A DNA stretch of 42,306 nt from a virus (IMGVR_UViG_2617271049_000012); one strand, 5' to 3'; positions 9,019 through 26,572 are shown, counted from the first letter of the stretch. Translations and numbers: made by a program. Notes: generated by a model not told the origin, from the letters alone.

Positions 9019-10906
9019 TGCAGCCGGTGCGATAGCAACAGGGCTTGTATCTCTCAATATTCCGGTACCACTGACGACAGTTCAGTGGGCTGATCAGCAT
9101 TATTATCTGCCAAAAGAGTCTTCATATACTCCCGGGCAATGGGAAACACTGCCGTTTCAGGTTGCCATCATGAACAGCATGGGGAATGACCGGATCCGCA
9201 CCGTTAATCTGATTAAATCGGCGCGTGTTGGTTACACCAAAATGCTGTTGGGGGTGGAGGCTTATTTTATTGAACACAAATCCCGTAACAGCCTGCTTTT
9301 TCAGCCGACAGATTCTGCGGCAGAAGATTTTATGAAATCCCATGTCGAACCAACGATAAGAGACGTTCCTGTATTACTGGAGCTGGCTCCGTGGTTTGGC
9401 AGAAAACATCGGGACAACACGCTTACCCTGAAACGTTTCTCCTCCGGTGTGGGATTCTGGTGTCTGGGCGGAGCTGCTGCCAAAAACTACCGTGAAAAAT
9501 CTGTGGATGTGGTCTGCTATGACGAACTCTCCTCGTTTGAACCGGATGTGGAAAAAGAAGGTTCACCAACTCTGCTTGGCGATAAGCGTATCGAAGGTTC
9601 GGTATGGCCTAAATCCATACGCGGCTCAACGCCCAAAATTAAAGGTTTTTGCCAGATTGAAAAAGCCGCGAACGAATCTGCACATTTTATGCGGTTTTAT
9701 GTGCCATGCCCTCATTGTGGTGAAGCCCAGTATCTGAAGTTTGGCGATGATGCGACAACCTTTGGCCTGAAGTGGGAGAAGGGCAAGCCGGAGACGGTGT
9801 ATTACCTGTGTGAACATAATGGCTGCGTGATCCGTCAGTCGGAACTTGACCAGACCGACGGGCGGTGGATTTGTGACAATACCGGGATGTGGACGCGTGA
9901 CGGTCTGACATTTTACAGCGCCGGTGATGAGGAAATCCCGCCACCGCGCTCAATCTCGTACCACATCTGGACGGCATACAGCCCGTTCACCACCTGGGTA
10001 CAGATTGTTTATGACTGGCTTGATGCACTGAAGGATCCGAATGGCGTCAAGACGTTCATTAACACCACGCTGGGGGAGCCTTATGAAGAGGCTGTGGCAG
10101 AAAAACTGAGCTTTGAGTTATTGCTGGAAAAAGTCTGCCACTATGATGCGCAGGTTCCCCTGCGGGTGGTTTACCTGACCGCAGGGATCGACTCTCAGAA
10201 AAACCGTTATGAGATTTATGTCTGGGGCTGGGCTCCTGGCGAAGAAGCTTTTCTGATTGACAAGCAGATCATCATGGGGAGACCGGAAGATGAGGACACC
10301 CTTAAACGCGTTGATGCCGTGATCCGGAAAAAATACCGTCATGCAGATGGCACTGAAATTTCCATTTCCCGCGTCTGCTGGGATACCGGTGGTATTGACC
10401 AGGACATTGTGTATCAGCGATCCAGAAAACACGGCACTTTTTTTGTGCTCCCCATCAAAGGGGCGTCGGTGTACGGCAAGCCGGTGATCACCATGCCAAA
10501 AAAGCGAAACCAGCGTGGGGTGTTTTTGTGTGAGGTGGGTTCCGATACCGTCAAGGAAATGCTGTATGCGCGTTTTGCCCTGCCGGTGGTATCTGCCAGT
10601 GAAGTCGCACCGTATACCTTCCGTTTTCCGGATAACCCGGACATTTTTTCTGATGTTGAAGCTAAACAACTCGTGGCAGAAGAGCTGGTTGAAAAAGTTG
10701 TGAACGGGCGGGTGAAACTCCAGTGGGATGCCAGAAAACGGCGTAATGAAGCTCTGGACTGTCTGGTGTATGCCTATGCAGCGCTGCGCATTTCCGTTCA
10801 GCGGTGGCAACTGGATCTGGATGCACTGGCCCGCGCCAGAAGAGATGAACAGGACGACGATGAAATGACTATTGAAGAAATCGCGGCTGCTCTGAGTGGA
10901 GGATAA
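8990..10906 (+). CDS. A: Terminase large subunit A
   Basis: About 639 aa, colinear with lambda gpA (HYYLPKES...WETLPFQ.AIMN.MG.D.IR.VN..KSARVGY.KMLLGV.AYFIEHK...VACPHCGE.QYLKFGD...). Confidence 0.95.
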
Positions 10907-10909
10907 GTG

Positions 10910-11119
10910 ATGATTTATACGCATGAAATGCTATGCGATGCCCGCCGGGCGTTACATGAACTGATGATCGGACGTGCTGTGGTTTCCGTCAGCAAGGACG
11001 GGCGTCAGGTTCAGTATTCGCGGGCGACAATTGGTGAACTGCGTCAGTATATTGAAGAGCTGGAAAGTGCGCTGGGTGTATCCGGACGGCGTCGTGGCCC
11101 GGCAGGAGTGGGGCTGTGA
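10910..11119 (+). CDS. W: Head-tail joining protein W
   Basis: About 69 aa; similar to lambda gpW (...AR.ALH.LM.G...V.V.KDGR.V.......L..YI.ELE.....RRRGPAG). Confidence 0.8.
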   Translation: MIYTHEMLCDARRALHELMIGRAVVSVSKDGRQVQYSRATIGELRQYIEELESALGVSGRRRGPAGVGL

Positions 11120-11928
11120 ACGGGGAACTGGTGGATATTCATGGGCAGCCTTTACGGCAAGGCATGGGATATTCTGGTGGTGGTTCCGGGTTCGGTGGGC
11201 AAATGGCAGAATGGCTGCCTGCACCGGAAAGTGCCGACGTGGCGCTCTTACCTTCCATTCATCTGGGTAACGCCCGCGCGGATGAGCTGGTCCGTAACAA
11301 CGGTATTGCATCGAATGCAGTGGAAATTCATAAGGATCATATTGTCGGGCACATGTTTCGTCTGAGTTACCGTCCCAACTGGCGCTGGCTGGGGATGTCG
11401 GAAGCAGATTCACATGCTTTTATTGAAGATGTTGAGGCGGCGTGGATGGAATACTGCGATCCGGTGTTTGGTACGATGGATGTGGAAGGGCGTCGTTCGT
11501 TTACCGAATTCATTCGTGAAGGGGTGGGGGTCCATACGTTTAACGGTGAAATTTTTGTCCAGCCCGTATGGGATGCGGAATCCACGTCATTATTCCGGAC
11601 GAAATTCAAAACCATCAGCCCGAAGCGTGTCAGTACACCCGGTTATGGTACCGGCGATCGTTTTATGCGTGCCGGGGTGGAAATAAACCGACACGGAAAA
11701 GCGCTGGCCTACCATGTTCAGGATGATGACTGGCCCGGCTACGGTGTCAGTAAATGGACACGAATTACGGCAACACTGCCTTCCGGACGACCGGGAATGA
11801 TCCATGTGTTTCAGCCACAGGAAGACGGGCAGACCCGCGGGGCCAACCAGTTTTATTCTGTAATGGAGCGTCTCAAGATGCTCGACACACTGCAGGCCAC
11901 GCAACTGCAGTCGGCGGTGGTTCGCGCC
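11116..11928 (+). CDS. B: Portal protein B, 5' portion (about 271 codons); gene interrupted by mobile element insertion
   Basis: Colinear with lambda gpB N-terminal half up to ...TQLQSAVVRA; after the junction the frame runs into 18 unrelated codons and a stop (ORF end 11982). Confidence 0.85.
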
Positions 11929-11930
11929 AT
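11924..11930. repeat. attL core (GCGCCAT), left copy of direct repeat
   Basis: Identical 7-mer at the right junction (22729..22735); flanking bases TTATG versus GTATG. Confidence 0.6.
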
Positions 11931-12059
11931 TTATGTCTATTATCTCCCCGTAGTTGTCGCCACCATTCATCAACTCCACTAAAACCCTTGATATGTCTGG
12001 AATGTCGTTTTTTGTATTTATGATGACCGTTCATTACCTTTCGTGTTTTTCGCGGTTTT

Positions 12060-12112
12060 GTGTATTGCAATGTGTATTGCAAGTTGGCGTTTGGATGGGG
12101 TGTGTATTGCAA
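12060..12112. repeat. Three direct copies of GTGTATTGCAA near attL, upstream of int (candidate arm-type or regulator binding sites)
   Basis: Copies at 12060-12070, 12072-12082 and 12102-12112; related copies near attR (22633..22654). Confidence 0.55.
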
Positions 12113-12131
12113 ATTGACGTGTAGGCTACAT

Positions 12132-13373
12132 ATGGCTATCGAGAATAAACTGACTGACAAACTTCTGAAAAGTCTTGCAGGTAAGCCGCAGGACAGACAA
12201 AAAATCATGGCTGATGGGCGGGGGCTATCTGTTCGTGTAAGCGTGGTTGGGGGAATTAGTTTCGTTTTTTACTATCGTATTGGCGGCAGGGATGCCCCTC
12301 CGGTATGGCTGACCCTTGGGCGTTATCCTGATATGTCTCTGGCAGCCGCCAGGAGATTACGCGACCAGTGCCGTGAATGGCTGGCGGAAAATCTGGATCC
12401 TCGCAGACAAATAAAACTTGTAGCTGAAAAAAACATGCGCCCTGTAACTGTAAGGGATGCGGTGCTTTACTGGTACGATAATCACGCCAGGACAGCCAGA
12501 AAGCAGCATGAGTATTTAATAAAAAGATTTGAAAAGCATATTTTTCCATATATCGGAGATATGGCTATAGAACAGTGCAAATTGCATACCTGGCTTACTG
12601 TATTTGACAGAATTAAAAAAAATGCTCCTGTTATGTCTGGTGCTATTTTTCTTGATATTAAACAGGCGTTACGTTTTTGCCGTATCAGGCAATACATTAG
12701 TTGCGATCCATTCGGTGATATTAACGTTAGTTATGTTGGACGTTCAGCAGGCATAAGGGATCGTGTTCTGAGTATTAATGAAGCCGCTGACGTATGGTCT
12801 TATGCCTATGGCAACAATTTACTTACCCTTTCATCAATACATAACCGAAGAATTATGGTTATCTGCCTGGTGTTTGGTTGCCGTCAGCAGGAGGCGCGGT
12901 TATCCACTTGGGAAGAATGGGATTTAAAAAACTGGATTTGGACAGTTCCAAAAGAGCACAGCAAGAACGGCGAGGTTATTGTAAGACCAGTCCCTGATGG
13001 AATAAAACAATGGGTTATTAATCTTTATGCGGAAACAAAGCACCGGGATTGTGTTATCGGTAGATCACTGAAGCGAGCGACAATAACAGGAGCAGCAAGC
13101 CGGATATGTAGGCGGCTAGGGCATGATGTAAATGGTCTGTGGTGCATACATGATTTCAGGCGTACATTTTCAACAATGCTTAACGATATGGGTGCCGATC
13201 CTTATATTGTAGAGCTTCTGCTTGGTCATAAAGTTAAAGGTGTGGCGGGTGTTTATAATAAAAGCAAGCATGTAAAGAAAAAACTTGAGGTTCTTAATAT
13301 GTGGGTTAATTACCTTAACACGATAGCCGGATTTAATAATAACGTTATTGAACTGAGTAAAGAGGTTGTTTGA
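12132..13373 (+). CDS. int: Tyrosine integrase, P4-type
   Basis: N-terminal P4-integrase-like region (LTDKLLKSL...KIMADGRGLSVRVSVVGGISFVFYYRIGGRD...WLTLGRYPDMSLAAARR) and C-terminal catalytic region (HDFRRTFSTMLNDMG...ELLLGHKV..VAGVYNKS); adjacent to attL. Confidence 0.9.
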   Translation: MAIENKLTDKLLKSLAGKPQDRQKIMADGRGLSVRVSVVGGISFVFYYRIGGRDAPPVWLTLGRYPDMSLAAARRLRDQCREWLAENLDPRRQIKLVAEKNMRPVTVRDAVLYWYDNHARTARKQHEYLIKRFEKHIFPYIGDMAIEQCKLHTWLTVFDRIKKNAPVMSGAIFLDIKQALRFCRIRQYISCDPFGDINVSYVGRSAGIRDRVLSINEAADVWSYAYGNNLLTLSSIHNRRIMVICLVFGCRQQEARLSTWEEWDLKNWIWTVPKEHSKNGEVIVRPVPDGIKQWVINLYAETKHRDCVIGRSLKRATITGAASRICRRLGHDVNGLWCIHDFRRTFSTMLNDMGADPYIVELLLGHKVKGVAGVYNKSKHVKKKLEVLNMWVNYLNTIAGFNNNVIELSKEVV

Positions 13374-13374
13374 T

Positions 13375-13632
13375 ATGTCAGTTTATTCACTTGTTGATGA
13401 AAAAGATTTTACTGCAATGCCGGATATTGATCGTGTCATTCGTGAAAAAGAATGCGTGGCACTTACTACGCTGGCAAATTCAACACGCTGGAAACTGGAA
13501 AAGACAGGTAAGTTCCCAAAACGTATTAAGATTGGTGAACGTGCCGCTGGCTATCGTCTCTCGGAGATTCAGGCGTGGATCCGTGGCGATTGGCACCCAG
13601 GATGGAAACCGGAAAAAACAAAACAGCAATAA
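13375..13632 (+). CDS. alpA: AlpA-family transcriptional regulator/excisionase
   Basis: Small HTH protein with AlpA-like motif (TGKFPKRIKIGERAAGYRLSEIQAWI); overlaps the int stop. Confidence 0.8.
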   Translation: MSVYSLVDEKDFTAMPDIDRVIREKECVALTTLANSTRWKLEKTGKFPKRIKIGERAAGYRLSEIQAWIRGDWHPGWKPEKTKQQ

Positions 13633-13648
13633 CCAGGAGATAAACACA

Positions 13649-13673
13649 GCCCCGCTCAATGCGGGGTTTTTTG
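13649..13673 (+). terminator. Rho-independent terminator
   Basis: CCCCGC-TCAAT-GCGGGG hairpin followed by TTTTTTG. Confidence 0.6.
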
Positions 13674-13691
13674 TATGTGAGGTAAAAAGCG

Positions 13692-14270
13692 ATGAATAAA
13701 AATATTGCCGTGACGGGCAAAGGTGACGCTCGTCTAGTGAAAAAATTCTGTGATATTCGTGATCTGGTCGTTCTGCGCTTTGATGGTGTGAACGTTCGCG
13801 TGGTGTATCTGAACGGCGATCCGTGGTTTGTTGCAGTTGACGTGTGCGCTGCGCTGGAAATTGTTGATCACAAGGTTGCGTTACGCCGTCTCGATGATGA
13901 TGAAAAGGGGGAGTGTTTAATACCCACCCTTGGCGGAAATCAAACAATGCGAACTGTATGCGAGTCAGGTTTCTACAAACTAATAGCCCGTAGCCGCAAA
14001 GCAACGACGCCTGGCACGTTCGCCCATCGTTTCAGTAACTGGGTATTCAGAAATGTGATACCGGGTATCAGAAAAACGGGGGCTTATGGTATCCCGTGGG
14101 GCGCATTACAGGATTTTTCCCGCCGTAAAGAGCAATATCAGATAAGTGCCAGCGAGAAGGGGAGGGAGCTACAGGCATGTAAGCGCAAAAAGCGTGAGCT
14201 GGAGGAAGAAGAAAAAAGGCTGATACGTGAATATCAGCCTGAGTTTTACTTTGGTGAGCGTATTCAGTAA
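13692..14270 (+). CDS. BRO-N domain protein (antirepressor-like)
   Basis: N-terminal Bro-N pattern (LRFDGVNVRVVYLNGDPWFVAVDVCAALEI...ESGFYKLIARSRKA); charged coiled-coil C-terminus. Confidence 0.75.
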   Translation: MNKNIAVTGKGDARLVKKFCDIRDLVVLRFDGVNVRVVYLNGDPWFVAVDVCAALEIVDHKVALRRLDDDEKGECLIPTLGGNQTMRTVCESGFYKLIARSRKATTPGTFAHRFSNWVFRNVIPGIRKTGAYGIPWGALQDFSRRKEQYQISASEKGRELQACKRKKRELEEEEKRLIREYQPEFYFGERIQ

Positions 14271-14552
14271 CCACTCGCAGTGCTGATTATACGGTACATC
14301 GTGTTAACCGGGAAGCTACCCACCAGCAAGGCAAAATCTTCTGCTAAAAAATGATATATGGTCAGCCGTCCGGAAAGCATGAAATTTTACAAAAATGGAA
14401 AATGAAGATTTTTATTGTGCTGGTGGGTAAAAACAAAAAGCGCCCCGTTGCCGGAGCGCCTTTGTGAACAATTAACCTACTGCGCAAAAAATGAATCTGA
14501 GCAGTGGGATTATATCAACCGTGTGACGAAGCGCCACAATTGCCGGATAACA

Positions 14553-14583
14553 GGCAAAACAAAGGCCACCCGCTACGGTGGCC
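14553..14583 (-). terminator. Rho-independent terminator for the minus-strand small-gene pair
   Basis: GGCCACC-CGCTAC-GGTGGCC hairpin with an A run on the + strand upstream (a U run on the minus-strand transcript). Confidence 0.5.
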
Positions 14584-14686
14584 CTTCAACACAAGCTACA
14601 CGTTATCCCCAACGCATGAGCATCACCAACAATGCCACATTTGCGGCTAGTGGGCAATGTGATCAGTGTGCTGGCTTGCTGGTGGG

Positions 14687-14884
14687 CTATTCCTGCTCTT
14701 TAGCATCGCCATGCTGCGATGTTTTCCAGGTATGCGATCCCATTTTTGTGCGCCTGTACTCTTTAAGGAACTTCTCAAGGACAAACGCACATGGTGCGAA
14801 TCTTTCCTGTTCTTGTTCGCTTACCGCGTTTTTGCGTTGTTTTTTCCTGGATGAGGATAATTTCTTTAATGATTTGTCAGTCAT
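14687..14884 (-). CDS. Small basic protein, paralog of the adjacent ribbon-helix-helix-like repressor
   Basis: 65-aa ORF between the RHH gene and a minus-strand terminator; shares ...SEQEQ...F.....FVLE... and the C-terminal AKEQE with 14942..15139. Confidence 0.4.
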   Translation of the reverse strand: MTDKSLKKLSSSRKKQRKNAVSEQEQERFAPCAFVLEKFLKEYRRTKMGSHTWKTSQHGDAKEQE

Positions 14885-14941
14885 CGTAGATACCTGTAAC
14901 CCAGTGCGCCACAGTTCACCGCACCACAGCGCTGGTGATGG

Positions 14942-15139
14942 TTACTCCTGCTCTTTGGCCTTCCGGCGCTGTTCATATTTTAATTTGCGTCCACAGGCAT
15001 CTAAGACCCATGCGGAAAAATTAGCACTAGGATTAGTTAATTTTTCTTGTTCAACACTGGCATCAATCCCATCTATAAGCTCGTGCGGGAATCGAATGTT
15101 TTTCTTTGCTGATTTGTTGTTTGTGTTTCCGCTAGACAT
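14942..15139 (-). CDS. Putative ribbon-helix-helix (Arc/Mnt-like) repressor
   Basis: 65 aa; N-terminal beta-strand-like KNIRFPHELIDGID; GAGGTG RBS 7 nt upstream of ATG; palindromic operators immediately upstream. Confidence 0.5.
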   Translation of the reverse strand: MSSGNTNNKSAKKNIRFPHELIDGIDASVEQEKLTNPSANFSAWVLDACGRKLKYEQRRKAKEQE

Positions 15140-15165
15140 TGGTACACCTCATTTAAATGGATTTG

Positions 15166-15246
15166 ATGGGCGCACACAATACAGCAAAAAAAGTGAGAAG
15201 TTAAGTATTGACATGTGCGCACACATAATTTTAATCTGTGCGCACA
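15166..15246. promoter_or_regulatory. Divergent control region with three palindromic operators TGTGCGCACA (one imperfect) overlapping a TTGACA -35 element
   Basis: Sites at 15168-15178 (GGGCGCACACA, imperfect), 15214-15223 and 15237-15246 (perfect 10-bp palindromes); TTGACA at 15208-15213. Confidence 0.65.
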
Positions 15247-15344
15247 GTTTGGGTTGCATTGCTCAAATTAAGCAACGCCCCGCAGTGCTCGCAACACATG
15301 CAGGGCGTCTAACCACCAACGATAGCAATAGTATCGAGGTAGCT

Positions 15345-15548
15345 ATGTTAAATCATACCACACACCCGCAAGGGCGGGACTCGCACAACCTGAATAAATA
15401 CATCTGGCGTTTTATCGCCCTGAGCACGGCACAGCCGCGCGTGATTACCATTGAGGCCACCAGCGAACAGGAAGCACGCCAGCAATCCCCGGCTGGCTGC
15501 GTGATGGTATTCGCCGCTCGTATTCGTCAGGAGGTGCGCCATGATTAA
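15345..15548 (+). CDS. Small satellite protein, possibly Icd-like (weak recollection only)
   Basis: First + strand ORF downstream of the operator region (MLNHTTHPQ...YIWRFIALSTAQPRVITIEATSEQEARQQ...); lies inside a spurious 377-aa track ORF. Confidence 0.4.
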   Translation: MLNHTTHPQGRDSHNLNKYIWRFIALSTAQPRVITIEATSEQEARQQSPAGCVMVFAARIRQEVRHD

Positions 15549-15753
15549 CCTGTCACTTACCGACCTTAACCGCATTCAGTTTCGTGAGAAATTTACCGGG
15601 CAGCTACTGGTCAATGTGGATAAAGGTCGCGTGGTGTGTAATTACCACCTGCCAGATGAAGCCATTGTCGCAACAAGGGAATCATTACAGGAACTCGCAG
15701 AACGTGCCGGAATGATTAACGCGAATATTCAGGGGGTGAGACATGTGCAATAA
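15541..15753 (+). CDS. Hypothetical small protein (70 aa)
   Basis: ATG overlapping upstream stop (ATGA); part of a tightly packed + strand operon. Confidence 0.45.
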   Translation: MINLSLTDLNRIQFREKFTGQLLVNVDKGRVVCNYHLPDEAIVATRESLQELAERAGMINANIQGVRHVQ

Positions 15754-15982
15754 CCCACGTCCGGACGCAGCCGCCGAAGCCATCAAAACGCTGATGCACG
15801 CGCTGATTGATATTTCATGCACGGCAGCAATCGCAGAAAAATACATTACCAGAGAGACGGAATATACAGGGGAAATAATCCCCCATTCGCTGGCCTACGC
15901 ACAGCTTACCGCTGATATGGCACTGAATGAGGCCAGGGCTATCCTGATTGCTGATTGTGAAAATGGGGGGGGTTATGCGTGA
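15743..15982 (+). CDS. Hypothetical small protein (79 aa)
   Basis: Overlapping-start operon member; no domain recognised. Confidence 0.4.
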   Translation: MCNNPRPDAAAEAIKTLMHALIDISCTAAIAEKYITRETEYTGEIIPHSLAYAQLTADMALNEARAILIADCENGGGYA

Positions 15983-16208
15983 TGATCGTTTTAATGCCCT
16001 GAAACAGGAATTTGATGGCGCACCGGAAGATACAGATATTGCGCTGTTATGTGTTGCTGACATGGTAAAAGCTGCATGTTTTTTACTGGAAACCGCCGAA
16101 CATTCAGGAACGGGTAGCGATATTCTCAATATTGCGTCGGACTATGCGGAATATGTGGCAGAGACGCGTTACAGAAGTAAATTCCCGGAGGGGGTGAGCC
16201 ATGCATGA
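15948..16208 (+). CDS. Hypothetical small acidic protein (start ambiguous: 15948, 15963 or 15975)
   Basis: Operon member; GGGGG RBS-like tract before ATG 15975. Confidence 0.4.
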   Translation: MLIVKMGGVMRDDRFNALKQEFDGAPEDTDIALLCVADMVKAACFLLETAEHSGTGSDILNIASDYAEYVAETRYRSKFPEGVSHA

Positions 16209-16434
16209 TATTTACAATGACACAGTAGACCATGCATACAGCGCACTTGCTTACAGTGAAAACATGCTTGAAATATTGCGCTTATGGCTTGAAACGCTTG
16301 GCGATAATGAAAGAGATAAACGCAACAGCAATATTGCAACAGCATTAATAACGCTTCTTGAGCCTGTAATAAATGAACTGCAAGAAATAGACATCTTGCA
16401 CGACAGATATAAAGAGCCACACACCGGAGAATAA
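16201..16434 (+). CDS. Hypothetical small protein (77 aa)
   Basis: ATG overlapping previous stop; operon member. Confidence 0.4.
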   Translation: MHDIYNDTVDHAYSALAYSENMLEILRLWLETLGDNERDKRNSNIATALITLLEPVINELQEIDILHDRYKEPHTGE

Positions 16435-16439
16435 AAACC

Positions 16440-16739
16440 ATGAAAAAGAAAAATTCTGGCTTTACTGCCAGCGGCCCCGCTCGGCCTGAAATCCGCCCCG
16501 GCGATATTTTCCGGGATAACTACGGCGGCACGGTAACGATTAAAAGTATTGCCGGACGGTGCGTTACTTACCGCCGTGATGGGTACAGCTACGACTGCGT
16601 GATGCCTGTTTATCAGTTCCGGCGTGATTTTTCTCTGGAACAGGCCGCACCACACAAACAGCCCACCAGCAACGCAAAGGCACGGGCGAACATTCAGAAA
16701 ATGAAAAACATGATTAACGCATTCAGGGGTAAAAAATGA
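16440..16739 (+). CDS. Hypothetical small basic protein (99 aa)
   Basis: Operon member directly upstream of rep; stop overlaps the rep start. Confidence 0.4.
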   Translation: MKKKNSGFTASGPARPEIRPGDIFRDNYGGTVTIKSIAGRCVTYRRDGYSYDCVMPVYQFRRDFSLEQAAPHKQPTSNAKARANIQKMKNMINAFRGKK

Positions 16740-18151
16740 AACTGGCACCGAACTTAAAAAAACAGCCGCACGACAAAATGACCGAAGTCATTATTTTTGC
16801 GGGTAGTGATGCCTGGGCGCACGCGAAACAATGGCAGGAGCAGGACGGGCGACTTGCTGGCGACAATGTTCCGCCTGTATGGCTTGGAGACAACCAGCTT
16901 GACGAACTGGCAGACCTGAAAATCATCGATGATGGTCGCTATTGTGTCCGGCTGTACAAGGCAGGCCACATCAAGCCGTCAAATATTAATGCCATCGGGC
17001 AAAAGCTGGCGGCGGCAGGTGTACGGGATGCGAATTATTACCCTGAGGGAATGCACAGCCAGAAGCTGGAGAACTGGCACGACTACCTGCAACGGATCCG
17101 CGAACAGACAGAGCGCGGGGAAATACTTACTGACGAGCAATACAGCCAGCGAAAAACCACGCTACCAATGAGCATTGGATCTGCAGGGTACGACACACAG
17201 CTTGATTATGTCGTTAAGGGCGTGATTCCGGCTAATTCATTGTGCAGCACATACGGCTCGAGCGGTTCCTATAAATCGTTCCTCGCGTGTTCCTGGGCGT
17301 GTCATGTTGCCACGGGTCGCCACTGGGGAGGCCGCAGGGTGGCGCATGGTTCGGTGATGTATGTCGTCGGTGAAGGGGGGATAGGTGTCCCCCGTCGTAT
17401 CAAGGCATGGGAAATCGTTAATGATGAACGGGTGGAAAATCTGTACCTGGTAAACCGCCCGATTTTTCCGGCAGTCCCGCTTGATGTCGATGAAATGGTC
17501 ATCGCTTCCCGCCAGGTTGAACGGGAAACGGGTAAACCGGTACGCATGATTATTCTGGATACGCTGGCGCGTTGCTTTGGCGGTAATGATGAAAATGACG
17601 CGCGGGATATGGGGGCGTTTATCCGTGGATGTGACGAACTGAAACGACGCACAGGGGCCACGGTGCTGGTGGTTCACCATTCCGGCAAGGATGAAACAAA
17701 GGGGGCGCGTGGTTCCAGTGCATTTCGTGCATCTCTGGACGCTGAATACCGTATTCGCCGTGAAGGTGCGGACAGTGAAGCCCTGGTTATCTCCTGCACC
17801 AAAATGAAGGACGCGGAGGAACTGAAAGAGGCTGCATATGATTTACGCGTGGTGGAGCTTTTTACCGACACTGACGGGGAGTTAATCACGTCGCTGGTGG
17901 TTGTGGATAAGCCGCGCCCACCTGTTGAACTGGAGCGCATCGAGGAGGCCGGGAACAAGACGGAGAATCATGCCGCGCTATGGCAGTGCATCAGAACGCG
18001 AACAGCACACGGGGAGGCGTGCACTATCGCCCTTCTCCGCGACGATATGAAAAAGCTGGGGTATGAAATGAAAAACTTCCGGCGCTGGCTGTACAAGCTG
18101 GAAAGCGACGGCGTAATCGCTATTGACGGTGATTATGTGCGCCCACTGTAA
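16736..18151 (+). CDS. Replication initiator/helicase (RepA-like RecA-fold ATPase with N-terminal extension)
   Basis: Walker A-like YGSSGSYKSF and Walker B-like RMIILDTLARCFGG; iteron array immediately downstream. Confidence 0.7.
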   Translation: MKLAPNLKKQPHDKMTEVIIFAGSDAWAHAKQWQEQDGRLAGDNVPPVWLGDNQLDELADLKIIDDGRYCVRLYKAGHIKPSNINAIGQKLAAAGVRDANYYPEGMHSQKLENWHDYLQRIREQTERGEILTDEQYSQRKTTLPMSIGSAGYDTQLDYVVKGVIPANSLCSTYGSSGSYKSFLACSWACHVATGRHWGGRRVAHGSVMYVVGEGGIGVPRRIKAWEIVNDERVENLYLVNRPIFPAVPLDVDEMVIASRQVERETGKPVRMIILDTLARCFGGNDENDARDMGAFIRGCDELKRRTGATVLVVHHSGKDETKGARGSSAFRASLDAEYRIRREGADSEALVISCTKMKDAEELKEAAYDLRVVELFTDTDGELITSLVVVDKPRPPVELERIEEAGNKTENHAALWQCIRTRTAHGEACTIALLRDDMKKLGYEMKNFRRWLYKLESDGVIAIDGDYVRPL

Positions 18152-18353
18152 AAAGTGAGGAGCAAAAGTGAGGATAGCGGGTAATTTAACAAAAAATCAG
18201 CGCTACTCCTCACTTTCTCACCTGTATATAGGTCAAAAAGTGAGGAATAAAAAATACATTGCAAAACAACGCATTACAGAAGAAAAAAAACAGGTGAGGA
18301 GCAGGACGGGAATAACAAAAAGTGAGGAATAAAAGTGAGTAGAGGTGAGGAAT
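18150..18353. repeat. Iteron array (about 8 copies of AAAGTGAGGA in both orientations): putative satellite replication origin
   Basis: Copies at about 18153, 18165, 18207 (inverted), 18236, 18291, 18318, 18331 and 18343, within AT-rich DNA 3' of rep. Confidence 0.7.
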
Positions 18354-18603
18354 GACCAGAAAAACCAGAGATAAGACAGCACCAAAATATCGCGCATTAG
18401 ACATGACAGAGCACGCCTTAAAGGTGGCAATCAGAACAATAGACCGCCATGCCGGAGAAGGATACGCAAAAGCACATCCAGAACTGATACGCGCATTCAT
18501 GACCACAGCGGCGGCAAACTTTGCCACGCTGACAGAACGGGAGATTGCCGAAGCGGAACAGGTGACAACCATCAACGTTAAAAACGGAGAGCATACAGCA
18601 TGA
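18352..18603 (+). CDS. Hypothetical protein (83 aa)
   Basis: ATG right after the iterons; stop overlaps the ssb start. Confidence 0.4.
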   Translation: MTRKTRDKTAPKYRALDMTEHALKVAIRTIDRHAGEGYAKAHPELIRAFMTTAAANFATLTEREIAEAEQVTTINVKNGEHTA

Positions 18604-19022
18604 CAGCACAGATAGCGGCTTACGGGCGGCTGGTGGCTGACCCGCAGTTAAAGACCACCAGCAAAGGGACACAAATGGCGATGGCGAGTATGGCGGTTCC
18701 CCTTCCGTGCAGCCAGGCAGATGACGGAACGGCGACGATGTGGTTATCCGTCCTGGCGTTTGGCAGGCAGGCCGACGCACTGGCAAAGCACCACAAAGGC
18801 GAACTGGTGAGCGTGGCGGGTAACATGCAGGTAAGCCAGTGGACAGGCCAGAACGGCGAAACGCGGCAGGGCTGGCAGGTTATCGCAGACAGCGTAATCA
18901 GTGCCAGAACGGCGCGACCGGGCGGCAAAAAAGGCCAGCAGGGCCAGGCTACTGACGCACTGAACAGGGCAAAACAACAGGCGGGAAATGATGATCCGTA
19001 CGGGGATAACATACCGTTTTAA
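18600..19022 (+). CDS. ssb: Single-stranded DNA-binding protein (SSB-like)
   Basis: OB-fold-like core, Gly/Gln-rich linker and acidic C-terminal tip (DDPYGDNIPF) resembling the SSB DDDIPF tail. Confidence 0.7.
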   Translation: MTAQIAAYGRLVADPQLKTTSKGTQMAMASMAVPLPCSQADDGTATMWLSVLAFGRQADALAKHHKGELVSVAGNMQVSQWTGQNGETRQGWQVIADSVISARTARPGGKKGQQGQATDALNRAKQQAGNDDPYGDNIPF

Positions 19023-19035
19023 GCAACGAGTGACA

Positions 19036-19063
19036 GAAGCCGGGATTTTTCCCGGCTTTTTTG
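19036..19063 (+). terminator. Rho-independent terminator after ssb
   Basis: AGCCGGG-ATTTTT-CCCGGCT followed by TTTTTTG; a second hairpin (19076-19100) with an upstream A run could terminate minus-strand transcription. Confidence 0.6.
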
Positions 19064-19196
19064 TGCGCAAAAAAAATCCCCCGGGATGAGGTTCCGGGGG
19101 ATTTCACGCCGCTAACGTGATTAGCGCTGAATGACTCTGTGGTACAAGGAGTAAAACCACGGCATCATGATTTCATGATTTGCAACAACAGTCAAT

Positions 19197-19219
19197 ATCA
19201 TTGCAAAAAATGCAATGAT
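19197..19219. promoter_or_regulatory. Perfect palindrome ATCATTGCA-AAAAA-TGCAATGAT upstream of the satellite capsid operon (candidate activator/operator site)
   Basis: 9-bp inverted arms around a 5-bp A spacer; shares the ATTGCAA core with the repeats at both island ends; preceded by direct repeats CATGATTT. Confidence 0.5.
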
Positions 19220-19280
19220 GATTAAAATCATGAATGACTTTTCGTTATGTTTATTTTTTAGTCAAAGAGGAATCTCATTT

Positions 19281-19487
19281 ATGGGAACACAGAAGCCGGG
19301 CGGTGTATCCGTGTACATCAGCCCCGATATTATCGCCGCACTTAATGCGCGCTTTGAGGAGAACGCAGAGGCAGGAAAAAAAATCGGCCTTGATCCGTTG
19401 TGCCTGGTGAAGCCGTCAGTCGGCTGGATGGTACGCAGCCATTTACGCGCTGCGCTTGGTATGAATCAGCCTCATGGGGGTGAGTAA
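19281..19487 (+). CDS. Hypothetical small protein preceding the capsid gene
   Basis: ATG with AAGAGGAA RBS; stop overlaps the capsid ATG (TAATG). Confidence 0.4.
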   Translation: MGTQKPGGVSVYISPDIIAALNARFEENAEAGKKIGLDPLCLVKPSVGWMVRSHLRAALGMNQPHGGE

Positions 19488-20542
19488 TGACAGCGCCGCA
19501 ACTGGTAAGCACACCAACGCTACTGAAAAATATCGGGCGCGAAGATGTGCCGGAATTTAAATTTAATCCACTCTTTACTACGTTGTTCTTTCCGAACGTC
19601 GCTACTTTCAGCACCAGAGATATTGCACTTGATACGCTGGATATTGAAAACGTGGTCATGAGTCCGTTTTGTTCTCCAATGTCAGGCAGCCAGGTTATGC
19701 GTGACAAAGGTTTCACAACGAACACGTTCACGCCGGGTTATATGAAGCCCAAACACGTTATTGATCCCACCAAAACAATCATGCGCATGCCTGGAGAACA
19801 GATCGGCAATGGTCAGTCTTCCCCGGCACTACGCCGCGTAAAAATGGTTCACGACAGCCAGAAAAAACAGCTTGCTGCCATCAAAGCGCGTGTTGAATGG
19901 CTGGCGGTCAATGCCATCACAACAGGCCGTAACGTTATTGAGGGCGAAGGCATTGAGCGTTATGAAATTGACTGGGGATTACCCGAAACCAATCATATTA
20001 CGCAGGCTGGCGGGAAAGAATGGTCAAAACAGGATGCCGAAACGTTTGATCCGATAAGCGACATTGAGGCTTACGCTGATTTTTCCGAAGGTACGGTAAA
20101 TATTATCGTCATAGGTGGCGAAGCCTGGCGTATTTTGCGCTCGTTCCGTCGATTCCGCGAACTAATGGACACGCGTCGCGGTTCAAACTCGTCACTTGAA
20201 CTTGCGCTAAAAGATTTGGGCGGCGTTGTCAGCTTCAAGGGGTATCTCGGTGATGTGGCGATCGTGGTTTATTCCGGTCGTTATGACGACGAAAACGGGC
20301 AGCAGCAATATTTCCTGAAACAAAACATGATGGTTTTCGGCAATACCGAAAATAAAGGCCTTGTTGCTTATGGTGCCATCATGGATCAGGACGCGGCACG
20401 CGAGGGATTTTCTGAGGGGATGTACTACCCGAAAAATTATATCGTACCGGGCGATCCGGCGATTGAATACGTGCAGACGCACAGCGCCCCGCAGCCAGTA
20501 CCCGTGGATATTGGTCGCTTTGTTACCGTCGAAGTGAAATAA
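19487..20542 (+). CDS. Major capsid protein, lambda gpE-like (satellite-encoded paralog)
   Basis: 351 aa colinear with lambda gpE (F.F.PLF...FF.....PGY.KPKH...NITQAGG.EWSK.D..TFDP..D.EAY......NII...WR.LRSF..F.E..DTRRGSNS.LE.A.KDLG..VS.KGY.GDVAIVVYSGRY...). Diverged from the host-phage E at 25544..26572. Confidence 0.9.
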   Translation: MTAPQLVSTPTLLKNIGREDVPEFKFNPLFTTLFFPNVATFSTRDIALDTLDIENVVMSPFCSPMSGSQVMRDKGFTTNTFTPGYMKPKHVIDPTKTIMRMPGEQIGNGQSSPALRRVKMVHDSQKKQLAAIKARVEWLAVNAITTGRNVIEGEGIERYEIDWGLPETNHITQAGGKEWSKQDAETFDPISDIEAYADFSEGTVNIIVIGGEAWRILRSFRRFRELMDTRRGSNSSLELALKDLGGVVSFKGYLGDVAIVVYSGRYDDENGQQQYFLKQNMMVFGNTENKGLVAYGAIMDQDAAREGFSEGMYYPKNYIVPGDPAIEYVQTHSAPQPVPVDIGRFVTVEVK

Positions 20543-20552
20543 AGGGGATCGT

Positions 20553-20882
20553 ATGCCAACACCTTACACGCAATTCCTTTCCGGCACGCAGGAACTGGTC
20601 AGCACGCTGGCCTGTTTTGCCAGTGCCGGAGAAATTAAAGCGAGAACTCCGCTGATGCAGAACGGCGCGGGCCTGATGGTTGAGTGGGACGGTACACCCG
20701 GTAAGGCGGTGTATCTGACCATATCGGACATTAACACGGCCACAAAAAACCGCGCACAGGTTTATAAGTGCGGGGTTTTTAATATCGATGAAATTAACTG
20801 GCCTGATACAGCGGACACGTTCGAGAAAAAAGTGTCGGCTTTTGTTGGTTCCGGTATTTCCGTGCAGCCTTTAGGGCAATAA
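20553..20882 (+). CDS. Head decoration protein, lambda gpD-like (satellite-encoded)
   Basis: 109 aa; gpD-like motifs (TPLM......WDGT.G.AV.......YK.G.F....WPD.A.....AF.G..IS) directly after the capsid gene. Confidence 0.65.
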   Translation: MPTPYTQFLSGTQELVSTLACFASAGEIKARTPLMQNGAGLMVEWDGTPGKAVYLTISDINTATKNRAQVYKCGVFNIDEINWPDTADTFEKKVSAFVGSGISVQPLGQ

Positions 20883-20896
20883 TTTTGTGGTGATTT

Positions 20897-21322
20897 ATGA
20901 CTGAGAAAGCAAATTCAACCAGAGCATTGATCATGGCACTGCCTGAGGCGCAGAAATACCCGACGCTTGCGGAAAATCTCGCAAATAATGGCGCATCACT
21001 GACAGAAGCCCGAACGGTGCTTACTGCAAAGGCTGAGAGTGATAAACAGCGCATAGAGGGTATCAAGGCGTTACCGCTGGCATCAAAATACCCTGAGTTC
21101 ACCAGTAAGCTGATTGAGTGTGGTTCTGAAGTAATGACAGTAACCTATGCACAAACGTTACTGGCTGCCGTGGATGCCCAGGCAATGATGCAGGAAAAGA
21201 AAACGGCTTTTCTGTTTGAAGCGTACATGGAAAAGCACAGCCCGAAATGTGTTGGGCCAGCAGCCGGTGATGGCAACGCCGGACTGACCGAAGATGAAAA
21301 GCTGTTGCTGTCTGTTAAGTAA
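20897..21322 (+). CDS. Putative scaffold protein (Nu3-like) with ALPEA/ALPLA repeat motifs
   Basis: Two repeats (ALPEAQKYPTLAENLANNGASLTEARTVL / ALPLASKYPEFTSKLIECGSEVMTVTYAQTLLAAVD) resembling the ALPEAKGREQLA..LAEQPGMTVEQAKTLLAAAP repeats in the host-phage C/Nu3. Confidence 0.5.
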   Translation: MTEKANSTRALIMALPEAQKYPTLAENLANNGASLTEARTVLTAKAESDKQRIEGIKALPLASKYPEFTSKLIECGSEVMTVTYAQTLLAAVDAQAMMQEKKTAFLFEAYMEKHSPKCVGPAAGDGNAGLTEDEKLLLSVK

Positions 21323-21336
21323 CTGAAATGAACGTT

Positions 21337-21368
21337 CGCGAGGCTGGCAAGGTCTCGCGATTTTTTTT
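21337..21368 (+). terminator. Rho-independent terminator
   Basis: TCGCGAG-loop-CTCGCGA followed by TTTTTTTT. Confidence 0.6.
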
Positions 21369-21394
21369 GTATCCGGAACGGTGGTGATCGCCCC

Positions 21395-21480
21395 AATTTT
21401 CACGGGTCCTTTCCAGAATCAGAAACACCGCGGGGCGGCAGACGCGCAAAAACGCGCTATTTATGAAAATTTTTCAGGAA
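21395..21480 (+). other. Satellite cos site (cosQ/cosN-like) mimicking the host-phage cos
   Basis: CACGGGTCCTTTCC...CGCGGGGCGGCAGACGCGC...CGCTATTTATGAAAATTTTTCAGG parallels the host cos at 8250..8330; directly upstream of the satellite terS. Confidence 0.75.
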
Positions 21481-21620
21481 AAAGCATGTCGGTACTTCTC
21501 GCGCATAACTGTTTGTTTTTATTAAAATCAACCACCAGGAACATACGACATCATAAAGCCCAAAAATCCTGTTTTTTTGGCGTTTCATGTCGGAACTGGT
21601 TTTTGATAAGGAATTGATAG

Positions 21621-22223
21621 ATGAATGTTAATAAAAATAATCTTGCGAAGATTTTTGGCGTCGATCCGCGCACGATTGAACGATGGCAAACGCAAGGGCT
21701 TCCCCATGTATCTGGTGGGGGTAAAGGTGTGGAGGTGACTTTCGACTCTGCGCAGGTGATCGAATGGTATGCACAGAGGGAGAAGGACATCGAAAACGAA
21801 AAACTCCGCAGGGAACTTGATGATTTACGTGCCGATGGTGAATCAGATTTACAGCCAGGCACAACAGAATACGAACGCTATCGCCTCACCAAAGCACAGG
21901 CGGACGGGCAGGAGCTAAAGAACACCAAGGAGACAGGGGAAGTTATCGATACTGAGTTCGTGCTCTATGCGCTTCGTGGGCTGGCGAGCCAGATTTCTTC
22001 GATCATGGATAGTTTACCGCTCACAATGCAAAGGCAGTTCCCCGCGATGACTCAGACAATGATCGAGGGACTGAGGAAGGAAACAGCACGGGCCTGTAAT
22101 GCGTGCGCTAAAACTGCCGATAACCTGCCCCGCATTCTGGAAGACTACCTGATGGAAACAACCGGAAACGTGCCGGAGAAATTACGGCAACAGAAAGGTG
22201 AGTGGCAGCCGCGCAATTATTGA
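21621..22223 (+). CDS. Terminase small subunit, Nu1-like (satellite-encoded paralog)
   Basis: N-terminal region near-colinear with the host Nu1 ([79 protein letters not shown]); C-terminal part diverged and longer (200 aa). Confidence 0.85.
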   Translation: MNVNKNNLAKIFGVDPRTIERWQTQGLPHVSGGGKGVEVTFDSAQVIEWYAQREKDIENEKLRRELDDLRADGESDLQPGTTEYERYRLTKAQADGQELKNTKETGEVIDTEFVLYALRGLASQISSIMDSLPLTMQRQFPAMTQTMIEGLRKETARACNACAKTADNLPRILEDYLMETTGNVPEKLRQQKGEWQPRNY

Positions 22224-22233
22224 ACAAAACTGA

Positions 22234-22296
22234 GAAAGGATCTGATAACGTCATTTTTGGCCCAAAATGACCACTGTCAGATCCTTTCTTTTTTTG
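22234..22296 (+). terminator. Long-stem terminator after the satellite terS
   Basis: AGAAAGGATCTGA...TCAGATCCTTTCT inverted repeat followed by TTTTTTT. Confidence 0.55.
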
Positions 22297-22470
22297 ATGA
22301 TTTTACCATTAAACAATGAGTTACAGAGAAGAAGAACGGATCTGACTTTTCCCGAAAAATTTTCATAAACAGTTAAGAATTGCGCGTATGGCTACCCCCG
22401 GTGTTTTATTTTCCAGGAAGGACCCGCCACAATTACGGCATTGTTTTCCATCACCACGGAGGCCATGACA

Positions 22471-22656
22471 ATGACCGAAGCCGAAATGCTCAAAATGATT
22501 CGCCGCGTTACCGGATCCAGCAAGACAGCAGGCAAACAGGAGACCACGCAGCCGGACAGCGTGATAGCCGAAAATTACGCGCGTGTGGTGGCTGAGGTGA
22601 TGCGCCGTGACGGTATTCACAAGCAACAATTTGCGTATTGCAATGTGTATTGCTAA
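22471..22656 (+). CDS. Hypothetical small protein at the right end of the island
   Basis: GGAGG RBS 9 nt upstream of ATG 22471; 3' end runs through the GTATTGCAA repeats near attR. Confidence 0.3.
   Translation: MTEAEMLKMIRRVTGSSKTAGKQETTQPDSVIAENYARVVAEVMRRDGIHKQQFAYCNVYC
22633..22654. repeat. Two direct copies of (G/T)CGTATTGCAA / GTGTATTGC near attR
   Basis: Same motif and orientation as the three copies near attL. Confidence 0.55.
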
Positions 22657-22728
22657 CCCTCCAAACGGGTGAAATATGCAAACATAACATATTGTTTTGT
22701 CTTTTTATTTTTTCGTATCTTTTCATAA

Positions 22729-22735
22729 GCGCCAT
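22729..22735. repeat. attR core (GCGCCAT), right copy of direct repeat
   Basis: Identical to 11924..11930; its last base pair is the first base of the portal codon ATG (M) that resumes the reading frame. Confidence 0.6.
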
Positions 22736-23492
22736 GTATGCCGCCACGATTGAATCCACACTGGATTCGGAAAAAGCGTTTGAATATATCGCCGGGGTGG
22801 GAGATGGAGGTAAAAATCCCCTGAACACCATCATGAAAGGCTACGCGCGTTATTACGCCACCAATACGGTAAAACTGGGAGGGGTCCGTATTCCGCATCT
22901 TTACCCGGGAGATTCACTGAATCTGCAGACAGCCCAGAATGCGGATAATGGTTTTTCTGAACTGGAAAAGGCGCTGTTACGTTACATTGCTGCCGGACTG
23001 GGTGTGTCGTATGAGCAGCTTTCCCGGGATTATTCACAGGTCAGTTATTCCAGTGCCAGGGCATCCGCCAATGAGTCGTGGCGGTATTTTATGGGAAAAC
23101 GAAAATTTGTGGCCAGTCGCCTGGCGTCACAGATGTTTGCCTGCTGGCTGGAGGAAGCCCTTATTCGTGGTGTGATCCGTCCGCCGAAATCCCGTTTCTC
23201 ATTCTGGGAGGCCCGTTCCGGGTGGTGCCGTGCCGAGTGGATTGGTGCCGGTCGTATGGCGATTGATGGCCTTAAGGAAGTGCAGGAAGCGGTGATGCGC
23301 ATTGAAGGCGGCCTGAGTACATACGAGAAAGAGCTGGCCCTGATGGGGGATGACTATCAGGAGATTTTCCGCCAGCAGCTACGGGAAACTCAGGAGCGAC
23401 AGGCTGCCGGTCTTCCGCGTCCGGTCTGGATAAAGGACGCGTTTCAACAGCAGATCCGACAGACAACGGGAGAAAAAGGCGATGCGCTGTAA
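22734..23492 (+). CDS. B: Portal protein B, 3' portion (about 252 codons)
   Basis: MYAATIES...DSLNLQTAQ..DNG.S..E..LLRYIAAGLGVSYEQLSR.Y.Q.SYS.ARASANESW.YFMG.RKFVAS...WIG.GRMAIDGLKEVQEAVM.IE.GLSTYEKE colinear with the lambda gpB C-terminal half; joins in frame to 11928. Confidence 0.85.
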   Translation: MYAATIESTLDSEKAFEYIAGVGDGGKNPLNTIMKGYARYYATNTVKLGGVRIPHLYPGDSLNLQTAQNADNGFSELEKALLRYIAAGLGVSYEQLSRDYSQVSYSSARASANESWRYFMGKRKFVASRLASQMFACWLEEALIRGVIRPPKSRFSFWEARSGWCRAEWIGAGRMAIDGLKEVQEAVMRIEGGLSTYEKELALMGDDYQEIFRQQLRETQERQAAGLPRPVWIKDAFQQQIRQTTGEKGDAL

Positions 23493-25498: not shown

Positions 25499-25527
25499 CG
25501 GGTCGTGATGCGGCCCGTTTGTGTTTT
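25499..25527 (+). terminator. Possible attenuator hairpin between D and E
   Basis: CGGGTCG-TGATG-CGGCCCG (one G-U pair) followed by TTTGTGTTTTT; weak. Confidence 0.3.
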
Positions 25528-25543
25528 TAAAGGAAAGTCAATT

Positions 25544-26572
25544 ATGGGGTTATTTACCACGCGTCAGTTGCTCGGCTACACCGAGCAGAAAGTGAAATTC
25601 CGTGCGCTGTTTCTGGAGCTGTTTTTTCGTCGTACGGTCACTTTCCATACTCAGGAAGTGATGCTGGATAAAATCACCGGAAAAACACCGGTTGCGGCAT
25701 ATGTGTCTCCGGTTGTGTCAGGTAAGGTACTGCGCAGTCGTGGTGGTGAAACCCGCGTGTTACGCCCCGGCTATGTTAAACCAAAACACCGGCTGGATTA
25801 TCAGCAGGCGGTGGAGCGTCTTCCGGGGGAAGATCCGGCCCGTCTTAATGACCCGGCCTACCGTCGCCTGCGTATTCTGACTGACAACCTGAAACAGGAA
25901 GAACAGGCGATTGTGCAGGTGGAAGAAATGCAGGCGGTCAGCGCTGTTCTGCAGGGTAAGTACACCATGAGCGGTGAACAGTTTGAGACGGTGGAAGTGG
26001 ATTTTGGACGTTCTGCCGCCAATAACATTACGCAGGCAGGGGGACGCGAATGGTCAAAACAGAATGCTGACACCTTTGATCCGACGCATGATCTGGATGC
26101 GTACTGCGATTTTGCTTCCGGTACCATCAATATTGCGATTATGGACGGTACTGTCTGGCGTATGCTGAACGGTTTTAAACTGTTTCGTGAAAAACTGGAT
26201 ACCCGCCGTGGCTCAAAATCTGAACTGGAAACCGCGCTGAAAGATCTGGGGTCCGTGGTTTCTTTTAAAGGTTATTACGGTGATCTGGCCATCATGGTGG
26301 CGAAAACAACGTATGTTGATGAAAACGGGGATGAGCAGCGTTATCTGCCGGAAGGCACACTGATTCTTGGAAACACTCAGGTGGAGGGTGTCCGTTGTTA
26401 TGGCGCAATCCAGGATAACCAGGCGCTGAGTGAAGGGATCACCTCTGCAATTCGTTATCCGAAACACTGGTTAGAGGTGGGGGACCCGGGGTGCGAATAT
26501 ACCATGACGCAGTCTGCGCCGTTGATGGTGTTGCCGGATCCGGACGCGTTTGTGGTAGTTCAGGTGAAATAA
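25544..26572 (+). CDS. E: Major capsid protein E
   Basis: Colinear with lambda gpE (...YVSP.VSG.V.RSRGG......PGYVKPKH.........RL..EDP..L.DPAYRR.RI...N...EE.AI.QVEEMQAVSAVL.GKYTM.GE.F..VEVD.GRS...NITQ.GG.EWSK...). Confidence 0.95.
   Translation: MGLFTTRQLLGYTEQKVKFRALFLELFFRRTVTFHTQEVMLDKITGKTPVAAYVSPVVSGKVLRSRGGETRVLRPGYVKPKHRLDYQQAVERLPGEDPARLNDPAYRRLRILTDNLKQEEQAIVQVEEMQAVSAVLQGKYTMSGEQFETVEVDFGRSAANNITQAGGREWSKQNADTFDPTHDLDAYCDFASGTINIAIMDGTVWRMLNGFKLFREKLDTRRGSKSELETALKDLGSVVSFKGYYGDLAIMVAKTTYVDENGDEQRYLPEGTLILGNTQVEGVRCYGAIQDNQALSEGITSAIRYPKHWLEVGDPGCEYTMTQSAPLMVLPDPDAFVVVQVK

Follow-up and report, generated by a model that had tools for sequence, protein, structure and literature searches.

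How can a lambdoid prophage hold its portal gene in two pieces that lie more than 10 kb apart, and what is the DNA between them? The question is raised by a 42,306-nucleotide stretch of viral DNA (IMGVR_UViG_2617271049_000012; "the window" below means this whole stretch, which was analysed at full length), in which gene B, encoding the portal, is interrupted by a satellite element. The insert belongs to a catalogued site group of helper-embedded phage-inducible chromosomal islands (HE-PICIs), and its own tyrosine integrase has very probably placed it at a GCGCCAT core in the portal gene of its lambdoid helper, in the same orientation as the helper's late operon. Coordinates are those of the window, and features lie on the plus strand unless stated otherwise.

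The interrupted portal gene

The N-terminal part of B (11116-11928; 813 nt, codons 1-271) ends in ...TQLQSAVVRA, and its open reading frame (ORF) continues for 17 unrelated codons inside the insert, to a stop at 11982. The C-terminal part (22734-23492; 759 nt, 252 codons plus the stop) starts with MYAATIES. Both junctions carry the heptamer GCGCCAT, at 11924-11930 (the attL core) and at 22729-22735 (the attR core), an identity block that we presume to be the crossover region. Joining 11928 to 22734 in a conceptual splice gives an in-frame portal ORF of 523 aa, and a crossover anywhere within the repeat would lead to the identical product. The spliced protein matches Pfam Phage_portal_2 with an E-value of 7.9e-95, its residues 27-393 falling on positions 2-353 of a profile of 354. 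The repeat at both junctions and the joining of the two pieces in frame had been noticed in a preliminary description of this locus, and both are confirmed here. That description expected a full-length, gapless alignment to lambda gpB. The alignment covers 509 residues at 62% identity and has two single-residue gaps, neither of them at the junction, where portal ...QLQSAVVRA/MYAATIES... stands opposite lambda ...QLQSAIVKAMYAATIES....

When the two cores are recombined in sequence, the result is an intact portal gene, with the predicted attB ...GTGGTTCGCGCCATGTATGCCGCC..., and a circular satellite, with the predicted attP junction ...TTTTCATAAGCGCCATTTATGTCTATT... lying between two doubled arm motifs. 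A 7-bp repeat taken alone is weak evidence, since it could arise by chance, and the decisive support therefore comes from contiguous empty sites. Such a search of other genomes had been suggested in the preliminary description. Of 5426 complete E. coli genomes, 105 match a 600-nt spliced query without interruption, 18 at an identity of at least 99%, and all 105 matches lie inside one annotated portal gene. No tRNA target was found within the 42,306 nt of the window.

Assignment to a known class of satellites

Satellites of this type were described by Tommasini, Mageeney and Williams (2023, NAR Genom Bioinform 5:lqad036; PMC10111431), who report 491 HE-PICIs at 14 sites in nine lambda-cognate late genes, 97% of them in A, B, C and E. 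In the portal gene they name three sites, B:Phage_portal_2:38, :227 and :241. For the last of these (B:241 in what follows), the published table gives the identity block "gcgccat" and lengths of 10,824-10,826 bp, with Eco10760.11, Eco13983.11 and Eco14386.11 as examples; the helper composite of Eco14386.11 is the 58-kb Eco14386.58, at potB. The published 163-nt attL (Eco10760/Eco13983.B_Phage_portal_2_241) is exactly window 11867-12029, and the 154-nt attR (Eco10760, Eco13983) is exactly window 22677-22830.

The arm sites point in the same direction. By the published diagnostic, an HE-PICI carries tgTGTATTGCantgTGTATTGCa twice in the same orientation, once 81 +/- 2 bp upstream of the attP centre and once 132 +/- 2 bp downstream of it, and the doubled TGTATTGC motif is reported to be absent from other PICIs (PMC10111431). 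In the window, the P'-arm doubled motif tgTGTATTGCaatgTGTATTGCaa (12059-12082) begins at a distance of exactly 132 bp from the attP centre. The P-arm copy, tgCGTATTGCaatgTGTATTGCta (22632-22655), is co-oriented with it and extends from 100 to 77 bp upstream of the centre, its second core ending at -79; this agrees approximately with the published figure, the reference point of "81" being unstated in that paper. On the P' arm, a single TGTATTGC (12103-12110) also follows the doubled motif at a distance of about 20 bp and closely precedes the start codon of the integrase; this half-site could serve as an extra arm or as an autoregulatory site.

The site interrupted in the window is a lambda late-gene cognate inside a prophage, the int, alpA and replication genes are co-oriented, and both the site and its block are listed. 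The island follows the four-zone plan of PICIs, with int and alpA, a dynamic zone that carries Bro-N, a replication zone, and a late zone with captured helper-type genes. The insert is a catalogued HE-PICI of site group B:Phage_portal_2:241, and its arrangement was already known. On this point the preliminary description, which had taken a satellite within its helper's portal gene to be undescribed, was mistaken: the configuration published in 2023 has the same site, core and att sequences. Our additions to that description are small, and consist only of the annotation of the late zone (cos, Nu1 and a Nu3-like gene), an iteron-type replication origin, and a copy at a secondary site in cstA.

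Compared with the listed B:241 elements, the window element is alike in its target codon, 7-bp block, att sequences, arm motif and spacing, orientation, four zones and size of about 10.8 kb; it differs in measuring 10,812 bp core to core, against the lengths listed above, and is a near-identical variant. The founding HE-PICI, 11capE, resides in capsid gene E of the lambdoid helper 50icd of E. coli NRG857c (PMC10111431), and it is the sole HE-PICI with experimental excision and replication data. It shares with the window element int-alpA, an Icd-like/DUF4222 run, a replication protein, a single-stranded DNA-binding protein (SSB), a major capsid protein (MCP) and a decoration protein. Its integrase is 53% identical to that of the window over the full length, another B:241 integrase being 89% identical (both values are pairwise only). 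The differences lie in the site of 11capE (E:Phage_cap_E:80, with a 10-bp block in capsid gene E and not in the portal gene), in its primase-type replication protein, as opposed to the window's RepA helicase, and in its HEPN/DUF262 cargo and the lack of an annotated Nu1.

The PICIs of Gram-negative bacteria of the EcCICFT073 type (Fillol-Salom et al. 2018) resemble the window element in size, in the order int-alpA-replication-late, in having a lambdoid cos helper and in carrying an island cos. Classical PICIs, however, are found away from the helper, at att sites of the chromosome, and act on it only in trans, whereas the window satellite lies inside its helper. The capsid-forming PICIs (cf-PICIs; Alqurainy et al., bioRxiv 10.1101/2022.09.08.507074) also have a major capsid protein and small terminase of their own, but they encode all head proteins, portal and head-tail connectors among them, and rely on the helper for tails only, while the window island instead interrupts the helper portal. 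Portal and connector are the markers by which SatelliteFinder separates cf-PICI from PICI, and an identity as cf-PICI was rejected because the island ORFs scanned include no portal, protease or connector genes. A P4-like satellite was rejected as well: the helper is lambdoid, the scanned ORFs lack Sid, Psu and Delta, and the replication protein is RepA/AAA_25. The only similarity to P4 that we saw is in the tyrosine integrase, which has the P4/PICI-type domain set (Arm-DNA-bind_3 plus Phage_integrase); in this sense the preliminary description was right to have the insert open with a P4-type integrase.

Recurrence and mobility

Diverged relatives of the island occupy the same portal codon in other lambdoid prophages. 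The junction of portal gene and related integrase gene occurs in 61 complete genomes. In the two of these that were inspected in detail, NZ_CP031134.1 (locus L001) and NZ_CP166879 (locus L002), the portal annotation consists of two pseudogene halves, which flank an island of int-alpA-BroN-RepA-SSB-MCP-decoration-TerS (TerS, small terminase). The 7-bp cores of the window, L001 and L002 are GCGCCAT, AGGCGAT and AAGCCAT, respectively; each is the same in its own attL and attR, and each follows its own portal codons, R-A-M or K-A-M. The doubled TGTATTGC motif stands at equal arm distances in all three. Empty sites, co-varying cores and the conserved geometry of the arm sites together support the view, put forward in the preliminary description, of a site-specific integrative satellite within the portal gene by which satellite and helper are physically coupled.

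Among complete RefSeq E. coli genomes, none covers at least 80% of the exact island; exact copies of it are present in GenBank assemblies. The exact integrase protein is found in 188 blocks of a public collection, and in six of the seven loci with the exact integrase that were examined, attL is identical to that of the window. One such record, GenBank HG977190.1 (locus L012), is identical to window 9132-16373 over 7,242 bp.

The island had also been proposed as a query for other loci, and there it does turn up. A satellite copy with an identical integrase lies within the chromosomal cstA gene, truncating the CstA ORF, in CP057879.1 (3699345-3706586) and in CP057888.1, and the former genome has a portal-embedded copy alongside the one in cstA. 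The attL core of the cstA copy is TCCCCAT, not GCGCCAT. The insertion looks like off-target integration, of the kind published for other site groups; neither the cstA event itself nor the accession HG977190.1 appears in the portion of the supplements of PMC10111431 consulted.

A separate observation concerns the helper of L001, in which the major capsid gene is interrupted by IS621, a member of the IS110 family (18869-21173 of that locus), so that this helper is probably defective.

Gene content of the satellite

The satellite body extends from 11931 to 22728 (10,798 bp, or 10,805 bp with one copy of the core). Its G+C content is about 0.44-0.48, as against 0.54-0.56 in the flanks. All assigned satellite genes are on the plus strand except two small ORFs, and the helper late operon likewise reads in the plus direction.

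The tyrosine integrase (12132-13373) has 413 aa if translation starts at the ATG in position 12132 (the mechanical ORF opens with a GTG at 12060), and carries the Pfam domains Arm-DNA-bind_3, Phage_int_M and Phage_integrase. It is followed by an AlpA-type excisionase/regulator of 85 aa (13375-13632; Pfam Phage_AlpA, E = 3.8e-15; phrog_2790), which is also a gene call in the identical locus L012.

The dynamic zone begins with an anti-repressor-like Bro-N domain protein (13692-14270; Pfam Bro-N, E = 5.8e-16; phrog_2593, E = 1.2e-78). Next come the two small ORFs on the minus strand, of 65 aa each (14687-14884 and 14942-15139), both gene calls in L012, the second with a precomputed Pfam match there to DUF3950, and then a small repressor-like protein of 67 aa (15345-15548), again a gene call in L012. 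A long mechanical ORF on the plus strand, 14415-15548 (377 aa), is unlikely to be a real gene: a match is confined to residues 286-376, to phrog_6196 "transcriptional repressor" (E = 7e-56). The stretch 14415-15548 varies among other copies with the same integrase, which fits the published "dynamic zone". A run of four small ORFs (15541-15753, 15743-15982, 15975-16208 and 16201-16434), for which the family search gave no match, ends with a DUF4222 protein (16440-16739; Pfam DUF4222, E = 4.3e-24). Icd-like proteins are annotated in the matching stretch of the relatives L001 and L002, not on the window island.

In the replication zone, a RepA-family replicative helicase (16736-18151; Pfam AAA_25, E = 5e-44) matches phrog_2850 across its full length, with helicase-primase families ranking below. 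Directly downstream of its gene, at 18149-18363, at least seven AAAGTGAGGA iterons in both orientations form a cluster, which to judge by its sequence is probably the satellite's origin of replication; in PICIs the origin is located downstream of pri (PMC10111431). The cluster includes a 23-nt near-palindrome at 18204-18249. An SSB is encoded at 18600-19022 (Pfam SSB, E = 4e-16). A scan of the island with Rfam for an immunity RNA of P4/C4 type gave none at the gathering threshold, and only chance-level matches at E of at most 1.

The late zone holds paralogues of helper late genes. The major capsid protein, of the lambda gpE family (19487-20542; Pfam Phage_cap_E, E = 3.4e-46; phrog_29), is 46% identical to helper E (25505-26572), and the head decoration protein, of the lambda gpD family (20553-20882; Pfam HDPD, E = 8.7e-8; phrog_49), is 41% identical to helper D. 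A Nu3-like scaffold candidate (20897-21322; phrog_1999, with phrog_53 in its C-terminal part) shows 36% identity to residues 409-535 of helper C/Nu3 (BLASTP E = 2.8e-11), a similarity from which a scaffold function may be inferred. The small terminase is of the Nu1 family (21621-22223; Pfam Phage_Nu1, E = 7.4e-68; phrog_57) and is 57% identical to helper Nu1 (8452-9018).

Immediately before this Nu1 gene lies a satellite cos region (21427-21620), with the cosN equivalent GGGCGGCAGACG at 21433-21444, followed by GCTATTTATGAAAATTTTT. Over 246 nt it shares 74% identity with the cos region of the helper (8276-8520), and both align with the left end of lambda, GGGCGGCGACCTCGCGGGTTTTCGCTATTTATGAAAATTTT. 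The cosN-like sequences are GGGCGGCAGACG in the satellite, GGGCGGCAGCGG in the helper and GGGCGGCGACCT in lambda, and a conserved GCTATTTATGAAAATTTT comes next in satellite and helper. The cosB-like stretches before each Nu1 diverge between satellite and helper, in keeping with TerS proteins of different specificity. The Pfam and PHROG scans of island ORFs found no portal, protease, large terminase, head-completion, connector, tail or lysis genes.

The helper late region

By PHROG annotation, the helper's lambdoid late region occupies 2964-42133 and is co-oriented with the satellite. It comprises the Q antiterminator, lysis genes, cos, Nu1, A, W, the split B, C/Nu3, D, E, FII, U, H, J and more, with the split portal gene positioned between W and C, and the late operon appears complete. 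Between the Q-like antiterminator (2964-3359) and an anti-repressor gene (3633-4121), Rfam matches at gathering level to c4-a1b1, isrK and C4 antisense RNA (3387-3582) mark a control module of isrK/C4 type, which belongs to the helper and not to the satellite. Near the other end of the window, downstream of the tail genes, an Rfam IS009 RNA at 42096-42266 (163 bits, for a gathering score of 117) adjoins the last plus-strand ORF listed (41753-42133). A lone minus-strand ORF between the lysis genes and cos (7310-7720; 136 aa), in a stretch of low G+C content (0.37), matches phrog_413, labelled "head protein", its L001 counterpart being annotated as DUF1398, and has the look of a moron-type gene carried by the helper as cargo.

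A proposed cycle and its alternatives

The 11capE/50icd pair serves as our guide to how the window composite may behave. After mitomycin C, that composite is precisely excised as a whole and replicated, and the satellite then leaves at about 2 h, from 42-98% of composites; precise excision was confirmed by deep sequencing (PMC10111431). By analogy, SOS induction of the window pair would excise helper and satellite as one composite that replicates as a unit, the satellite being copied passively. Helper late transcription dependent on Q would read into the satellite's int and alpA, and integrase and AlpA would then excise the satellite; only afterwards could the helper portal be made and proheads nucleate. 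On the same analogy, excision would restore portal gene B and delay helper head assembly. As the satellite is without portal, protease, large terminase, head-completion and tail genes but has cos and Nu1, it most likely directs the helper large terminase to its own cos: the Nu1 paralogue would recruit helper gpA to this site, for packaging into heads built on the restored helper portal. These heads could be either shells of satellite proteins or helper-sized heads with about four genome copies, four copies of 10.8 kb amounting to 43 kb; in a model E. coli PICI, the packaged DNA consists of concatemers of phage length (PMC10111431). The outcome would be a built-in delay of the helper, likely a reduced helper yield, and guaranteed co-inheritance of both elements.

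Several points weigh against this account. For the B:241 elements, each step from induction and excision to packaging and transfer is one that we infer. In the sole pair tested, 11capE/50icd, neither virions nor plaques were recovered (PMC10111431), which leaves helper competence and satellite transfer conjectural for every HE-PICI. The related composite L001, with its helper capsid gene broken by IS621, suggests that some composites are decaying. The immunity, integration and replication regions of the helper fall outside the window, and its completeness is judged on the late region only. According to work cited in PMC10111431, capsid genes are dispensable for transfer in a model E. coli PICI; the E, D and Nu3 paralogues of the window satellite may build a distinct, smaller shell, or they too may be dispensable. 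The literature that we found after the description of HE-PICIs consists of citing reviews and surveys only, with no follow-up experimental work.

It could therefore be argued that the composite is a fossil, a prophage remnant now defective and immobile, in which the insertion merely inactivated the phage; the missing virions of 11capE/50icd, the second disruption in the L001 helper and the position of the helper early region outside the window would all be in keeping with this. We nevertheless consider it improbable, as all satellite and helper late ORFs examined are intact, as are both cores and both arm motifs, and identical attL sequences are found in many independent assemblies. Moreover, the presence of an identical-integrase copy in cstA beside a portal copy in one genome argues for recent movement.

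In active lysogeny, or a phage regulatory switch, the excision of a prophage restores a host gene, as at comK of Listeria. The locus resembles comK-type switches in that excision would restore an interrupted ORF and time its expression, but a bacterial gene and a prophage are involved there, and a phage structural gene and the phage's own satellite here. Restoration of a gene by excision is the very logic of such switches, and transfer has never been shown for an HE-PICI, so the element might be a domesticated switch, in the service of host or phage, that gates prophage head production and not a transmissible satellite. This is very unlikely, given its full PICI kit for replication and packaging (helicase, iteron origin, SSB, cos, Nu1, capsid genes), its occurrence in different helper lineages at different chromosomal helper sites, and the existence of off-target copies. 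An assembly chimera, or a portal normally encoded by two genes in this phage family, was a possibility a priori only and is rejected as having next to no probability, since the same junctions recur in the 61 occupied complete genomes and in many independent assemblies, the portal is contiguous in the 105 genomes with empty sites, the splice is collinear with lambda gpB with a gap-free junction, and deep sequencing of a sister element has documented precise excision (PMC10111431).

The choice of the portal gene may itself be functional, beyond the mere convenience of a late-gene site, in that the portal would be withheld until satellite shell proteins and TerS have accumulated, before proheads nucleate. 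What prompts this idea is the presence of a shell-and-specificity module (Nu3-like, E-like, D-like, Nu1-like and cos) that lacks exactly portal, protease and large terminase. We regard it as speculative and rather unlikely. Were it true, the first portals would seed satellite-type shells, possibly smaller ones, and the satellite would have a cis-acting, timing-based route to capsid takeover, unlike the trans-acting strategies of Sid, CpmAB and Rpp. Delayed late-gene expression is discussed in PMC10111431; shell composition is not.

Significance

The window is one further instance of a catalogued site group and leaves the concept of the HE-PICI unchanged. Experimental data so far concern 11capE only, and the portal-site group is known from sequence alone. 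The practical value of the locus is as a warning for annotation. Helper-embedded satellites bear on satellite-helper conflict, on gene transfer in E. coli and on the calling of prophages as "defective", the portal being annotated as two pseudogenes. More generally, in HE-PICIs the parasite of a virus is wired in cis into the structural operon of its helper, where it gates an essential helper gene, and this wiring guarantees the satellite co-inheritance, passive replication and late transcription.

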